Shown here piece by piece: positions 41,351-46,640 of a stretch of 64,000 bases of DNA (position 1 is the first letter of the stretch; every line of letters begins with the position of its first letter). The stretch comes from an uncultured Parachlamydiaceae bacterium (GTDB taxonomy: Bacteria > Chlamydiota > Chlamydiia > Chlamydiales > Parachlamydiaceae). The position numbers and the translations under genes are program-made. The notes under the pieces were generated by a model. It did no database searches and had not been told where the DNA came from. It saw only the letters and a list, made by a program, of their open reading frames with translations. The stretch is from assembly GCA_963838645.1 (NCBI GenBank), contig CAWIRV010000003.1, positions 58,578-122,577 of the forward strand, given 5' to 3'.

Positions 41351-41633
41351 CCTAATTTCTTAGCAACTTTATAACAAGATTTTAAGATAAATTTTATATT
41401 ATTTCAACAAGACTTCAGAGTATGCTCTTCGTTAAGGAAATTTTTAATAAACGTGAGGTAGGAAATTCAGGAGATTAAATTTCTATGTTTTCCTCAAACC
41501 CCTATTTATTAAAAAGTTTTGTTAAATCAATCAAAGTGAGAATTTAAGCAATACGAAAACTCTCACGATTCAACGATCAATAATGGGGTCTATAACAGGC
41601 CTTAAATGGCGGTCTCCTCACCGTATCTCTCTA

Positions 41634-41794
41634 AGAGACTGTCTACGAATTTAAAATTTTGATTAAAAGTCCTTTTTGCGCCACTTCTTTAATAAAAGCT
41701 TGAAAATATTATCAAATATTTCCGGCGCTTTTATTAAAGAATTTGCATCAAAAATGCCTCTTTTAATCAAGATTTTAAATCGTAGACAGTCTCT
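41634..41794. repeat. Palindromic repeat family R3 (AGAGACTGTCTACGAATTTAAAAT... ends)
   Basis: 161-bp element. Related copies at 42853-43014 and 46429-46590, with a partial at 45706-45734. Flanked by CTAAG/CTAAA. Confidence 0.85.
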
Positions 41795-42034
41795 AAAGAG
41801 GTAGCTATATTAAAAACTAGAATATTCTATTTTTTTCTTATACTATCCCAAAAGATTTGCAAGTAATATAAAAAAAAGTTTAAAATTGATAAAGAGTCTA
41901 TGCTGAATATACTTTAACTAGTCTAGTTCTTTGAATGCTTGAAGAATAATTAAATTAAATATAAATTAATAATTTTTATTATTATTTATAAATATTAATA
42001 ATTTATAATGAAATCATTTAACTATAGAGGTTTT

Positions 42035-42253
42035 ATGAAATATATGTCATCTAAAGAATTAAAATCTATTAGAGCTGGTGCTGAATATTATGCTGAAAAT
42101 TTTGGTGATGTAATGACAGCATATCAACAGCATGCACCTAATGGTACATGGGCAGATACGATTCAGACTTATCATGATCAAGGCAATAATGTTGGTCAAG
42201 CTATTAGCTCCTACGCTCGAAATCCAGAGACTATACGTATTATCATAGAATAA
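42035..42253 (+). CDS. Small protein (72 aa) with a double-glycine-leader-like N-terminus, paralog of 45990-46196
   Basis: MKYMSSKELKSIRAGA... resembles the LSxxELxxIxGG leader pattern. RBS AGAGG 5 nt upstream. Conserved core HDQGNNVG. The upstream and downstream flanks are also duplicated. Confidence 0.55.
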   Translation: MKYMSSKELKSIRAGAEYYAENFGDVMTAYQQHAPNGTWADTIQTYHDQGNNVGQAISSYARNPETIRIIIE

Positions 42254-42323
42254 GGACACAAATAGCTAAAACCGGATCCGGTCAATCTTAATTTGAATAG
42301 CCAACAAATACTTTTTTAAGTAA

Positions 42324-42352
42324 CCTGATTAAGGCACAATGCCTTAATCAGG
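42324..42352 (+). terminator. Hairpin downstream of the small-peptide gene
   Basis: CCTGATTAAGGC-ACAAT-GCCTTAATCAGG is a perfect 12-bp stem. There is no clear T-run, so termination activity is uncertain. Confidence 0.35.
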
Positions 42353-42514
42353 AGTTGATTTGTCTGTTTGGTAGCATGTATCTATCTTGTTAAGGAAATA
42401 ACATATTCAATTTGCATTCAATAAGATAGAGAGCTATAAGCTGCTACCGTTTAGCTAAGCTAAAATTCTCATATGGCTGCAATATGAGAATTTTGCTATA
42501 TTCATTCTATCTGT

Positions 42515-42853
42515 TTGATGCTAGGCCTATTTTGCCTTGTAATGTCTTTTTTATCGTCATTAAACATTTTTGGTCACTTAAGTTATCTTATGCTGTTTTT
42601 TTCTCAATTGATCCATTTTATTTTTCAAATTTATAGTTTAATGATTTTTATTCGAATTATAGCTTCTTGGGTTCCCCAATTTAGTCACTATTGGATTATG
42701 AGATTTATTGCTTACTACACTGATCCTTATCTGAATTTGTTTCGTCGTTTTATTCCCCCGATAGGGATGTTTGATTTCAGTCCTATTATTGCTATTTTAT
42801 GCTTAAGCTTTGTTCAAGATCTCATTTTTAGTTTTCTAAGATTAATCATCTAA
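42515..42853 (+). CDS. yggT: YggT-family membrane protein
   Basis: IFIRIIASWVP...YYTDPYLNLFRRFIPPIGMFDFSPIIAIL matches the YggT signature. The true start is probably an internal Met. Confidence 0.75.
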   Translation: MMLGLFCLVMSFLSSLNIFGHLSYLMLFFSQLIHFIFQIYSLMIFIRIIASWVPQFSHYWIMRFIAYYTDPYLNLFRRFIPPIGMFDFSPIIAILCLSFVQDLIFSFLRLII

Positions 42854-43014
42854 GAGCCTGTCTACGATTTAAAATCTTGATTAAAAGAGGCATTTTTGAT
42901 GCAAATTCTTTAATAAAAGCGCCGGAAATATTTGATAATATTTTCAAGCTTTTATTAAAGAAGTGGCGCAAAAAGGACCTTTTAATCAAAATTTTAAATT
43001 CGTAGACAGGCTCT
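42853..43014. repeat. Palindromic repeat family R3 (inverted orientation)
   Basis: Starts at the last base of the yggT stop codon. Flanked by CTAAG on both sides. Confidence 0.85.
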
Positions 43015-43138
43015 AAGTATCTTTAGAAAAAAGCATAGACAAAATTAATTGAGGACCAAGAAGCCAAGCCTGAGATGCAGAGGTCTATTGGACTTAATAA
43101 AGATTTATGCTAAATAAGACTTAAAAGAGGAAAATCTC

Positions 43139-43435
43139 ATGGAACAGCATCCTGTTCATGTTTTGTGCGAAATGCATGCTCTTATAAGAGGGGAGGTTCA
43201 AGGGGTAGGGTTTCGAGCCACAACCCAGTATTATGCGATGAGGTTGGGTCTTAAGGGGACAGTGCGCAATCTTCCAAACGGAAATGTGGAAATTTATGCA
43301 CAAGGGTCTAAGCAACAGCTTCAGGAGCTTATCCGAAAATTGAAAGAGGAATTTGGATCTAGACAAATTGAAGAGGCTACGGTTGAATATCTTTCTATGA
43401 AAAATCCTTACCGAGACTTTCAGATTATTCATTAA
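43139..43435 (+). CDS. acyP: Acylphosphatase
   Basis: Signature [12 protein letters not shown] and [17 protein letters not shown]. 98 aa. Confidence 0.85.
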
Positions 43436-43518
43436 AGCTCTCGTTTGTCTGAGTTGATAGCCTTACAAGAAAGAGGAGTTATACACAAATAAAAGGATAT
43501 CTTAAAGAAGAGAGACAT

Positions 43519-44265
43519 ATGCCAGAACCTACTTTAACCTCTCGTTTAGCTATAAGGGATTATCCTAAAAATATTTCTCCTTTAATGGAGCAAAAATGGC
43601 GTCGTCTCTTATTTTTGCATTGGGAATGTGATCCTCATATGATTCAAAAGAGTCTTCCAAAAGGATTGCATGTAGATCTATTTCGTGGAAAAGCTTATGT
43701 AGCTATTGTTCCCTTTTTTATACATGATGTACGTCCTAAATTCGGACCCTCTTTGCCTGGTTTTTCTAATTTGATGGAGATGAATTTGCGTACTTATGTC
43801 TATGATGAAACGGGAATTCCTGGAGTTTGGTTTTACTCTTTAGATATTAATAGTCGGTTAGCCGTTCAAATGGCAAGAACTTTTTTTTATTTACCTTACT
43901 TCTATGCTGACATGAAATCTTATTCAACAGATGAGCAAGAAACCGTTTATCGTTGTCAGCGCCATGAAATCTCATCTATATCAGAGTTTATTTATCAAGG
44001 GAATCAGAACCAGATTAAGGTTGAACCTGAATCCTTAGAATTTTTTCTAATTGAGCGTTACGTTCTATTTTCTGATAAAGGAGATCATCAGCTTGTGGCA
44101 GGAAGAGTTCACCATGCTCCTTATCCGCTTTATAGTGCTAAATTATCAAAGTGGGATGATCTGGTATTTGAATGGGATGGTTTAGTAAGGCCAGGAAGGC
44201 CGCCTGAGCACATTTGTTTTTCATCCGGTGTTGATGTAGAGATTTTCCCTTTGAGAGAGGTTTAA
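43519..44265 (+). CDS. DUF2071 (YqjF-like) family protein
   Basis: WRRLLFLHWECDP, GKAYVAIVPFF, FSNLMEMNLRTYV and GIPGVWFYSLD follow the pattern I associate with DUF2071. Confidence 0.65.
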   Translation: MPEPTLTSRLAIRDYPKNISPLMEQKWRRLLFLHWECDPHMIQKSLPKGLHVDLFRGKAYVAIVPFFIHDVRPKFGPSLPGFSNLMEMNLRTYVYDETGIPGVWFYSLDINSRLAVQMARTFFYLPYFYADMKSYSTDEQETVYRCQRHEISSISEFIYQGNQNQIKVEPESLEFFLIERYVLFSDKGDHQLVAGRVHHAPYPLYSAKLSKWDDLVFEWDGLVRPGRPPEHICFSSGVDVEIFPLREV

Positions 44266-44371
44266 GTCTGTAAAAACTGATTAGGTTTAAAATTGGGAGT
44301 TTTTATGAATTATAAGAAGACCTAGTGCTTCGTCACATTAATATTTAATCTTCAATTTTAAGGAGGTTAGA

Positions 44372-44635
44372 ATGGCTAATTATCAACAACAGCAACAACA
44401 ACAGCAAAAACAACAGCTGCAAGAGCCCACAACATGGCCTGATTTTGCGGCTAGCTTATATGATAGATTGACAGGCCGAGGGGCCCAAATTACTTATGAG
44501 TTTGAGGATTTTGATCTATTTATTCCTACTAAAGTGGGTCCACAGCCAACTCATGCGCATTGGAAAATGCGTGGAACCATTAATATTCGAACAACTGATC
44601 CTATCCATCAACAGCCAGGAACAGGGTCTAGCTAA
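44372..44635 (+). CDS. Hypothetical protein with an N-terminal poly-Gln tract
   Basis: RBS AAGGAGG. MANYQQQQQQQQKQQLQ is encoded by a CAA/CAG run. No known motif. Confidence 0.5.
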   Translation: MANYQQQQQQQQKQQLQEPTTWPDFAASLYDRLTGRGAQITYEFEDFDLFIPTKVGPQPTHAHWKMRGTINIRTTDPIHQQPGTGSS

Positions 44636-44638
44636 AAT

Positions 44639-45007
44639 ATGGATAAGCAGATAGAGGTAACAGGATATCTAGACTTGAAAATAGATGGATGGCCTGCTAA
44701 TTTAGAAATAAGAGACAATTATCTACACGTTTATTTTTCTTCATTTTCGGCTTTAAGAAGATTTGATTATTCTTTTCGCTTTGGAGTGCTGAGGAGCTTG
44801 TCTCCTCAGCATCCCTTTTTGGATTGGATGCATCGTCTCACTATTTATTACTATGTTTCCGATTATTTAATAGGAGAAATGGGACCTCAAGTAAAAACAA
44901 ATTGGTGGAGCCGCTACGTGGGGCTAAGAACGATCAGAATCAATATAAAAATGTTGTTAAAAGCTTTAGCAAGTCAATTTTTAAAAGCCTTTAAAATGCA
45001 TCAATAG
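44639..45007 (+). CDS. Hypothetical protein, apparently co-transcribed with 44372-44635
   Basis: Starts 3 nt after the upstream stop. No known motif. Confidence 0.45.
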   Translation: MDKQIEVTGYLDLKIDGWPANLEIRDNYLHVYFSSFSALRRFDYSFRFGVLRSLSPQHPFLDWMHRLTIYYYVSDYLIGEMGPQVKTNWWSRYVGLRTIRINIKMLLKALASQFLKAFKMHQ

Positions 45008-45254
45008 GAGATGCTATTTATCCTATTTGCTCGGGTAGATTCTGTCGCTCTCAAGCATTATGGGCAATTTTACAGCCTTTTTCAGATCAAATTGTTTTGT
45101 TTCCTCCGGCATGCAGCACGTGTCGGTTGGGACCCCTACAATGGACAAATCAATAGATATCGAAATGAGGCTTAAGAATCGTCTTAACCAGACTAATAAA
45201 AGTTTAAGCAGTGGCTTCTTCATGCCTCCATAGAAGGCTTCTTAACCATTTTAT

Positions 45255-45420
45255 TAACTCACCTTACGCAAAAAGAGTGGCATTTGGACTGAAGTGAAAG
45301 TTCCCATGGTTCAATGCTCGTCAGTCACCCTATATTTCCTTATATAGGGTGACTGACGAGCATTGAACCATGGGGCTTTGGCTCAGTCGAAATATCACTC
45401 TTTTTGCGTAAGGTGAGTTA
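45255..45420. repeat. Palindromic repeat family R2, long form
   Basis: TAACTCACCTTACGCAAAAAGAGTGGCATTTGGACTG...GTGACTGACGAGCAT...TTTTTGCGTAAGGTGAGTTA. Confidence 0.85.
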
Positions 45421-45424
45421 TTAA

Positions 45425-45660
45425 GATATTATTTTTCAAATCTTCCCCGATCACGCCATCTCAAAAATAGACGGATCTACATGCTGGAAAATCATGAGAT
45501 AAATCTATTCATCTACAATCTGTTCTAAGAACATAAAAAACTGCATTAAGCATCTCTCGCCTAGAATATTTATAGCGCGTACCTGCGCTACAATAAATCC
45601 CTTCCTTTAGCAAAGGTTCAATCTGATTCCAGTCTTTATCTGTTAAGTCGTCTGGGTCAG
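45425..45660 (-). pseudogene. IS5-family transposase N-terminal remnant
   Basis: The minus-strand translation LTDKDWNQIEPLLKEG...RREMLNAVFYVLRTDCR-stop-...FPACRSVYF matches the LTDxxWxxIxPLLP...LNAIxYVLRTGCxWRxLP...VY pattern. It contains stops and has no DDE core. Confidence 0.55.
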
Positions 45661-45989
45661 ACCTTTCTATTCATAGCTTCTCCTTGATTAAGGAGGAAAA
45701 TTATAGATTAAATTTTAAATTCGTAGACAGTCTCTAAGGGTGACTAGGAAATTTACGTGATTAAATTTTTATATTTTCTTGAAGCACTATCATTAAAAAG
45801 CTATTGTATATAATATAAAAATTATTTAAAATTAATGAAGGCGTGTTTGGTAAACAAACACTTATCTGTTTAGTTTTTTGAATGTTTGCAAAATAATTAA
45901 ATTAAATATAAATTGATTTATTTTTATTATTAATAAATAAATATTATAATTTAATTTTCAAGAATTACTTAAATATAAAAGGTTTTTTT

Positions 45990-46196
45990 ATGAAAGCTAT
46001 ATCATGTGCAGAATTAAAATCTATTAGAGCCGGCGCCCAAAATTTTGGTGAGGCAGTGTCAGCAATCCAACATGGACTTCCTGATCACACATGGTCAGAT
46101 ATGATTCACGCTTTTCATGATCAAGGCAATAATGTTGGCAAAGATATTAGTTATTATGCTAGAAATGCATCGGAATTAGTTATTATCGTAGAGTAA
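45990..46196 (+). CDS. Small protein (68 aa) with a double-glycine-leader-like N-terminus, paralog of 42035-42253
   Basis: MKAISCAELKSIRAGAQNFGE..., shared HDQGNNVG and a C-terminal IIVE/IIIE. The AT-rich upstream block TTTGAATG.TTG.A.AATAATTAAATTAAATATAAATT is shared with the paralog. Confidence 0.55.
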   Translation: MKAISCAELKSIRAGAQNFGEAVSAIQHGLPDHTWSDMIHAFHDQGNNVGKDISYYARNASELVIIVE

Positions 46197-46274
46197 GGGC
46201 AATGATACAAATAGCTAAAACCAAATCCCAGAAATTTTGGATTTGAATAGCTATATCTTTTCTTAATTAACTCG

Positions 46275-46318
46275 ATTAAGGCGTTGTTTAATAGGCTATT
46301 TTTAAACAACGCCTTAAT
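46275..46318 (+). terminator. Hairpin downstream of the second small-peptide gene
   Basis: ATTAAGGCGTTGTTTA...TAAACAACGCCTTAAT is a 16-bp stem around a 12-nt loop. Confidence 0.35.
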
Positions 46319-46640
46319 AACCTGAGTTTATTTCCTTGATTCTTAGGAGTCTTTCCTCTTATCTCTCGTTCTTTTCTTCTCGGAAATAGCCATTTGACTA
46401 TTCCCTTCAAAGAAAAGGACAAGATCTAAGAGACTGTCTACGAATTTAAAATTTTGATTAAAAGGTCCTTTTTGCGCCACTTCTTTAATAAAAGCTTGAA
46501 AATATTATCAAATATTTCCGGCGCTTTTATTAAAGAATTTGCATCAAAAATGCCTCTTTTAATCAAGATTTTAAATCGTAGACAGTCTCTAAGAGAAAAT
46601 CTTCTCTAATAATCAAGGAATAAACTCAAAACTCAGGTTA
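46318..46640. repeat. Repeat family R4 (long form) carrying a nested R3 element at 46429-46590
   Basis: The R4 ends TAACCTGAGTTTATTTCC... and ...GGAATAAACTCAAAACTCAGGTTA are intact. R3 is inserted with a CTAAG duplication at a site that is uninterrupted in the R4 copies at 6299 and 60090. Confidence 0.85.

Follow-up and report, generated by a model that had tools for sequence, protein, structure and literature searches.

This analysis concerns two paralogous open reading frames (ORFs), A and B, in a 64,000-nucleotide stretch of DNA, here termed the window (positions 58,578 to 122,577 of contig CAWIRV010000003.1, assembly GCA_963838645.1), from an uncultured bacterium of the Parachlamydiaceae. 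With a probability of approximately 0.6, ORFs A and B are proposed to encode precursors of small secreted proteins, which would represent unlinked cargo of an NHLM-type peptidase-ATP-binding cassette (ABC) exporter specified elsewhere in the same genome (designated G000; 2.51 Mb, 17 contigs). The two ORFs, at the positions recorded in a preliminary description of the window, and their predicted leader and core segments are as follows:

42035-42253, + strand: ORF A, 72 aa
42035-42079, + strand: ORF A leader (15 aa), MKYMSSKELKSIRAG; cut proposed after Ala14-Gly15; length and register as in the exporter-adjacent leaders MKKLTKEELRKINAG
42080-42253, + strand: core of ORF A, 57 aa, plus stop codon; isoelectric point (pI) 4.6, net charge -5, no Cys, helical by low-confidence prediction
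45990-46196, + strand: ORF B, 68 aa
45990-46034, + strand: ORF B leader (15 aa), MKAISCAELKSIRAG
46035-46196, + strand: core of ORF B, 53 aa, plus stop codon; pI 5.0, net charge -5

The paralogy put forward in the preliminary description was borne out by protein alignment, in which 39 of 72 residues (54%) were identical (E value, 2e-27), and the shared motifs quoted there, namely, ELKSIRAG, TW.D, HDQGNNVG, IS.YARN, and a terminal II(I/V)E, were, together with NFG, present in both products. A whole-genome search of G000 returned these two gene copies only. Following leader removal, mature A is predicted to comprise 57 residues (6,435 Da; pI 4.6) and mature B 53 residues (5,867 Da; pI 5.0), both being Cys-free with a net charge of about -5.

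A peptidase-ABC exporter encoded on contig C7

The preliminary description had suggested a genome-wide search for a C39-peptidase ABC exporter, and an intact transporter of this kind was indeed identified on contig C7. The single Peptidase_C39 (PF03412) match on this contig (119.5 bits) is located in an intact 739-aa ORF (742-aa open frame) whose product scores 878.5 bits against the NCBIfam model TIGR03796 (curated cut-off, 853.3). Neighboring genes match TIGR03797 (736.2 bits; cut-off, 709.4) and TIGR03794 (250.2 bits; cut-off, 156.2), and the cassette is, being above all three curated cut-offs, predicted to encode an intact NHLM-type export trio. The C39 domain retains the Gln/Cys/His/Asp motifs (QMEAVECG, NHF, and NDP). 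Because genes for an FtsX/ABC pair, a second HlyD-like protein, and an OEP (TolC-type) outer membrane factor adjoin the trio, a route across both membranes is predicted to be encoded at this locus. G000 also harbors three TLC ATP/ADP translocases, which mark an obligate intracellular lifestyle.

Exporter-type cargo and the Ala-Gly leader

Four small peptide genes lie directly after the C7 exporter, and their products begin with MKKLTKEELRKINAG, MKKLRKKELKKINAG, and, in two copies, MKKLTKKELRKINAG, each followed by a Gly-rich core. A fifth cargo-type gene was found on another contig, where it is unlinked to the exporter:

G000 contig C2:292373-292459, - strand: 28 codons, MKKLSKEELKKVTAG followed by VSFTNLLNDWKFW, recognized by its leader and promoter cassette

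This gene shares a promoter cassette of approximately 170 nt with the four C7 genes, and the 13-residue, Trp-rich peptide that it would yield resembles a pheromone. All five exporter-type leaders are 15 residues in length, conform to MKKLxKxEL(K/R)K(I/V)xAG, and end in Ala-Gly rather than Gly-Gly. The Gly-rich C7 peptides match the NCBIfam leader model NF047798 (leader_Chryseo) weakly, at 13 to 17 bits, all of which are under the 23.5-bit cut-off.

With respect to their arrangement, the C7 peptide genes (50 to 56 aa; core GGSGGAGGGAGGSGTPGGSGLPP...) occupy positions 10430 to 16113 within C7:96000-115000, where they sit in repeated promoter-ORF-long-hairpin cassettes with insertion sequence (IS) elements between them, one cassette being duplicated exactly around an IS element.

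An NHLM-type transporter over or near the cut-off was detected in approximately 14 of 61 genomes of the order, and leader peptides beside such an exporter were found in six related genomes. Those of G033, G018, G034, and G046 are of the GG type, while the remaining two end in Ala-Gly:

G044, L023 1821-1982: leader …EELLNIAAG, followed by S, beside an NHLM-type exporter
G043, L026 15366-15464: leader MSESELKSAAAG, followed by A, beside an NHLM-type exporter

The transporter closest to that of G000 is encoded by G018, whose leader, MKNLNKEELKMVCGG, also comprises 15 residues. Because of this 15-residue leader and the AG-type leaders of G043 and G044, short leaders and Ala-Gly ends appear to be traits of the systems of this clade. 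No positions of the C39 domain that separate AG-type from GG-type systems were evident among 11 sequences. In a further relative, the peptidase-ABC exporter homolog at G030:C31:14891-17017 carries five in-frame stops, indicating that the system is decaying there.

Leader match of ORFs A and B

Like the five exporter-type leaders, those of A (MKYMSSKELKSIRAG) and B (MKAISCAELKSIRAG) have 15 residues, of which Ala-Gly are the last two, and the register is also the same. Counted from Gly15, hydrophobic residues occupy positions -15, -12, -7, and -4, with Glu at -8 (M1, M4, E8, L9, and I12 in A; M1, I4, E8, L9, and I12 in B). The published recognition register consists of Leu(-12), Glu(-8), and Leu(-7) (PMC6363468), and the hydrophobic/Glu register described there for peptidase-ABC cargo is found in both proteins. 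A cut behind Ala-Gly agrees with this register, whereas one behind the Gly-Ala that comes next does not. The preliminary description had regarded ELKSIRAG as a near match to a double-glycine leader; the assignment as a leader is supported, but the notion of a near miss is not, as the leaders of the five exporter-type peptides of G000 end in exactly Ala-Gly. Because these five peptides and the exporter-side peptides of G043 and G044 all display it, Ala(-2)-Gly(-1) looks like a clade variant and not a failure of the cargo rule. A literature search for an Ala-Gly variant of the double-glycine site returned no papers.

The ELKSIRAG block is identical in A and B at 8 of 8 residues, and the sole indel between the two proteins (4 residues) begins directly after AG-A, such that conservation changes at the proposed site, as the preliminary description had envisaged for a cleaved leader, instead of being uniform across it. 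With the pattern ^M.{3,12}EL[KR].I.[AG][GAS], a screen of 72,743 start-to-stop candidates returned ORFs A and B, the four C7 genes, and nothing else. A leader hidden Markov model (HMM) built solely from the peptides of other genomes placed ORF A at rank 8 of 72,743 N-terminal 15-mers (12.3 bits; E value, 0.66), within the range of the C7 exporter-adjacent peptides (11.9 to 14.0 bits), and an HMM of all leaders placed ORF A at rank 7 (E value, 0.054) and ORF B at rank 16 (E value, 2.4). The competing matches are N termini of large housekeeping proteins; within the top 16 of the HMM of all leaders, no ORF of up to 100 aa other than A and B lies outside the cassettes.

Organization of the duplicated modules

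Each ORF is embedded in a larger duplicated module (41860-42360 and 45810-46320). The DNA alignment of the modules extends over approximately 490 nt at 73% identity and takes in the ribosome-binding site together with the AT-rich block that lies upstream (TTTGAATG.TTG.A.AATAATTAAATTAAATATAAATT) and the AAATAGCTAAAACC...TTTGAATAGC block that lies downstream, in agreement with the shared upstream and downstream DNA noted in the preliminary description. Identity amounts to 82% over the initial 45 coding bases, 68% over what remains of the ORF, 73% over the 110 nt that precede it, and 67% over the downstream DNA. The stem-loop that had been described downstream of each copy was also confirmed: two hairpins, small and then long, close each module, with folding z scores against shuffled sequences of -4.85 (A) and -6.55 (B). 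The components of the modules, and the R3 repeats that accompany them, are listed below:

41925-42034, + strand: shared AT-rich upstream region of module A, including the 5' untranslated region; 73% identity with its module B counterpart
42026-42030, + strand: AGAGG ribosome-binding site of module A, 4 nt before the ATG
42260-42352, + strand: 3' region of module A with conserved AAATAGCTAAAACC block, small palindrome, and terminator-like hairpin; folding z, -4.85
42271-42282, + strand: small palindrome ACCGGATCCGGT in the 3' region of module A, from the module alignment
42324-42352, + strand: terminator-like stem of module A, from a terminator scan
45875-45989, + strand: shared AT-rich upstream region of module B, from the module DNA alignment
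45978-45982, + strand: AAAGG ribosome-binding site of module B, 7 nt before the ATG
46210-46328, + strand: 3' region of module B with conserved AATAGCTAAAACC block and small and long hairpins; folding z, -6.55
46222-46245, + strand: small hairpin of module B, CAAATCC...GGATTTG
about 46276-46317, + strand: long hairpin of module B, from folding
41947-41957 and 45894-45904: 11-mer TAATTAAATTA upstream of ORFs A and B
41620-41800: R3 repeat upstream of module A (blastn)
42853-43017: R3 repeat between the modules (blastn)
45710-45738: R3 fragment of 29 nt upstream of module B (blastn)
46425-46596: R3 repeat downstream of module B (blastn)

For ORF A, 42035 is favored as the start site and not the upstream ATG at 42008, because AGAGG lies 4 nt before the former and no start matching the latter is present in copy B. 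A putative weak sigma-70-type promoter, TTGAAG-17-TAAATT, was read by eye upstream of ORF A and scores under the threshold of the promoter scan. The first downstream hairpin occupies a position common to both modules and differs in its letters (ACCGGATCCGGT versus CAAATCC...GGATTTG), its structure being kept but its sequence not. Each of the seven leader-peptide genes has the 11-mer TAATTAAATTA at 69 to 96 nt upstream of its ATG, and the genome as a whole contains 28 occurrences. Although no other feature is common to the window and C7/C2 upstream regions, it was not counted as promoter homology, since by our own estimate a shared word of such length is expected by chance between AT-rich regions. 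Its position probably reflects such chance, a role as a shared operator being the less probable explanation.

R3 is a palindromic, miniature inverted-repeat transposable element (MITE)-like repeat of approximately 170 nt, with approximately 18 full-length copies in the genome (blastn of 41610-41805). As previously indicated, an R3 element or fragment is situated upstream of each module.

Homology and structure searches

The A/B family is an orphan with two copies in G000. In Pfam, searched to an E value of 10, the only match was a sub-cut-off similarity of ORF A to DUF6507 (WXG100-like helical hairpins; 13.4 bits; E value, 0.12; cut-off, 25), which was rejected and had no counterpart in ORF B. 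No match was obtained in NCBIfam at an E value of up to 0.1 or in PHROGs, and a sequence search of the PDB returned nothing usable (best E value, 0.24). The bacteriocin_IIc, NHLP, and Nif11 models that the preliminary description had advocated likewise gave no match to either ORF in Pfam and NCBIfam. AlphaFold2 returned three or four short helices, with residues 1 to 23 below 50 in predicted local distance difference test (pLDDT) score within an overall poor model, and no confident globular fold that includes the N terminus; the quality of the model is too low for it to weigh for or against export, or to support a fold search.

Evaluation of alternative explanations

Several findings weigh against the export of A and B and are considered here together with the explanations which they may favor. 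The two products may be ordinary cytoplasmic small proteins, neither cut nor exported, whose resemblance to leader-bearing precursors is coincidental, a reading which is deemed unlikely albeit deserving of serious attention. It draws on leader-HMM E values that are near or over 0.05 (0.05 to 0.7 for A; 2.4 to 11 for B), on the approximately 10 chance matches to the loose literature motif expected among the start candidates of G000, on the separation of the window genes (contig C3) from the exporter (contig C7) by at least about 170 kb, and on an acidic, hydrophilic core unlike those of classical bacteriocins. Furthermore, the strict leader pattern was composed after both peptide sets had been viewed; A and B, being paralogous, amount to one independent observation; Ala at -2 falls outside the published GG/GA/GS set, the Gly(-2) of that rule being lacking in both; and the promoters of the window modules were found to have no homology to those of the C7/C2 cassettes. 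By itself, the leader match is therefore suggestive and not statistically decisive. It gains weight because it occurs in small ORFs and in exact register from Met1, because it includes the unusual Ala-Gly of the exporter cargo of G000 itself, because the cargo-type gene on C2 is likewise unlinked, and because ELKSIRAG, invariant in paralogs whose identity is otherwise about 50%, belongs to the best-conserved stretch of the protein and adjoins its only indel; a coincidental resemblance would also have to account for A and B being the sole non-cassette entries among small ORFs in the top 16 of the all-leader HMM.

It is distinctly improbable, in our estimation, that the ORFs are not functional protein genes and the modules a duplicated stretch of intergenic or repeat-associated DNA (perhaps a decaying gene or a small RNA) whose frame is open by chance. 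The ratio of nonsynonymous to synonymous substitution rates (dN/dS) between A and B is approximately 0.75, and their differences are flat over codon positions (20/15/17), with no third-position excess; coding constraint therefore appears to be weak outside two blocks, ELKSIRAG and HDQGNNVG. The noncoding flanks (67 to 73% identity) are as similar as the coding core (68%), R3 repeats flank both copies, and the 3' regions are strongly structured. The lack of homologs is also in keeping with this explanation: no relatives were found in 60 related genomes or in species-representative genome contigs, a word search of a 5.8-billion-protein collection returned the window proteins only, and a full HMMER search of 1.84 billion representative proteins yielded none that was genuine. 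(Six extra HMMER matches, to cadherin, tetratricopeptide repeat [TPR], and DUF4215 repeat proteins, were rejected as spurious, low-complexity matching.) The poor AlphaFold2 models (pLDDT, 47.5 for the pair alignment and 57.2 for the core alone) count against the proposal as well. Nevertheless, both frames are open despite 52 substitutions (simulated P of approximately 0.08 for substitutions alone), the sole indel, of 12 nt (4 residues), is in frame, an ATG and a ribosome-binding site at correct spacing are present in both copies, and conservation is concentrated in ELKSIRAG and HDQGNNVG, which are invariant at the protein level and within which only synonymous differences occur. Near-free evolution outside these blocks fits the behavior common in exported peptide cargo and is also compatible with decay.

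Export by another route, such as chlamydial type III secretion, which also employs N-terminal signals, would be consistent with a genome from an amoeba-type chlamydia, as indicated by the three TLC nucleotide transporters. Many orphan proteins of amoeba-type chlamydiae leave the cell by type III secretion. For A and B, however, nothing specific supports this route: the N terminus is an ordered amphipathic Glu-Leu leader of the double-glycine type and not a disordered, Ser/polar-rich signal, and no chaperone gene is adjacent to either ORF, rendering the suggestion highly improbable.

Proposed export pathway and possible function

In the proposed peptidase-ABC pathway, the 15-residue leader would form an amphipathic helix presenting Met1 (-15), Met/Ile4 (-12), Glu8 (-8), Leu9 (-7), and Ile12 (-4), and the 739-aa transporter would receive this helix in its C39 peptidase domain, whereupon cleavage would occur after Ala14-Gly15. 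The acidic, Cys-free, and probably helical cores of 57 and 53 residues would then travel outward by way of both ABC subunits, the HlyD-like adaptor protein, and the TolC-like outer membrane channel, and may thereby arrive in the amoeba cytoplasm or in the vacuole of the symbiont. Among the neighbors of the two copies, no conserved partner or immunity-like gene was seen, which, together with the acidic, nonamphipathic core, argues for a nonlytic role of the predicted mature peptides, as a signal, matrix component, or host- or competitor-directed factor, over that of a classical pore-forming bacteriocin. As a more speculative extension, which we hold to be rather improbable, the Gly-rich peptides, the 13-residue Trp-rich peptide, and the two acidic proteins of approximately 55 residues, all with a 15-residue Ala-Gly leader, might constitute an exporter-dependent secretome that acts inside the host on co-infecting bacteria or the amoeba.

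Comparison with known systems and significance

The leader of microcin V comprises 15 residues, and class II microcins such as microcin V (exported by CvaB, CvaA, and TolC) resemble the proposed system in their components (precursor, peptidase-containing ABC transporter, membrane fusion protein, and TolC), their unmodified, fast-evolving cores, and their precursor length of less than 100 aa. In class II microcin export from a two-membrane cell, a short leader is removed by a C39-peptidase ABC transporter acting with a membrane fusion protein and a TolC-type channel (PMC9746304). Class II microcins differ in that their cleavage site is GG or GA whereas that of the window ORFs is Ala-Gly, in that their genes adjoin the exporter and an immunity gene whereas A and B are unlinked and without a conserved partner, and in that the microcin V exporter is CvaB whereas that of G000 is of the two-ABC NHLM type; in addition, the window cores are acidic and are not known to have antibacterial activity.

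The exporter of G000 belongs to exactly the export trio found with the NHLP/Nif11 systems (TIGR03794/03796/03797). NHLP/Nif11 precursors, however, carry leaders of approximately 70 residues, whereas those of the window comprise 15 and lack similarity to nitrile hydratase alpha or Nif11 (Pfam, NCBIfam), and no modifying enzyme is encoded at either locus. The leader style of the Bacteroidota leader_Chryseo family (NF047798), MKKL.K.EL..I.GG with approximately 15 to 18 residues, is common to the C7-type leaders; leader_Chryseo leaders end in GG, while the window leaders end in AG and give no NF047798 match at an E value of up to 0.1. A precedent for nonbactericidal peptidase-ABC cargo is provided by EbfG1-4 of Synechococcus elongatus, double-glycine-motif small proteins which are exported via the peptidase-ABC transporter PteB and enable biofilm formation without acting as antibiotics (PMC4997328), though their sequences are unrelated, their motif is GG, and their host is free-living. 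The window system, as reconstructed here, departs from the textbook arrangement in its Ala-Gly site, its lack of exporter linkage, and its lack of an immunity gene.

In free-living bacteria, ABC transporters that cleave leaders are a familiar means of peptide export. In G000, an obligate intracellular symbiont has kept such an exporter intact, along with no fewer than seven cargo genes if the orphan pair is counted. No paper linking chlamydiae with leader-cleaving peptide ABC exporters was found in the searchable library; the nearest is a count of clusters "like" those of peptides that are made on ribosomes and modified after translation (RiPP-like) in amoeba-associated chlamydiae, in which the mechanism of symbiont protection against Legionella was left unexplained (PMC9666466). 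Some Parachlamydiaceae symbionts protect amoebae against Legionella (PMC3991601; PMC9666466), and an exporter-dependent secretome, should it exist, would be a candidate for this protection. If exported, A and B would exemplify a way for small proteins to enter the host compartment without recourse to type III secretion and would form part of a defined set of molecules for symbiont-competitor or symbiont-host interaction. An Ala-Gly site would, moreover, extend the accepted GG/GA/GS rule employed by genome-mining tools. The interest of the finding lies mainly in the organism and in this rule, A and B being a probable orphan addition to a known type of exported peptide.

Neighboring genes

The genes neighboring the modules encode YggT, an acylphosphatase, a DUF2071 protein, and two orphans. 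An orphan two-gene unit at window positions 44372 to 45007 specifies an 87-aa protein with an N-terminal poly-Gln run and, 3 nt later, a 122-aa protein, neither of which matched Pfam or PHROGs. A long near-perfect palindrome at window positions 45240 to 45420, representing a second MITE-like repeat, lies between the gene for the 122-aa orphan and a transposase remnant.

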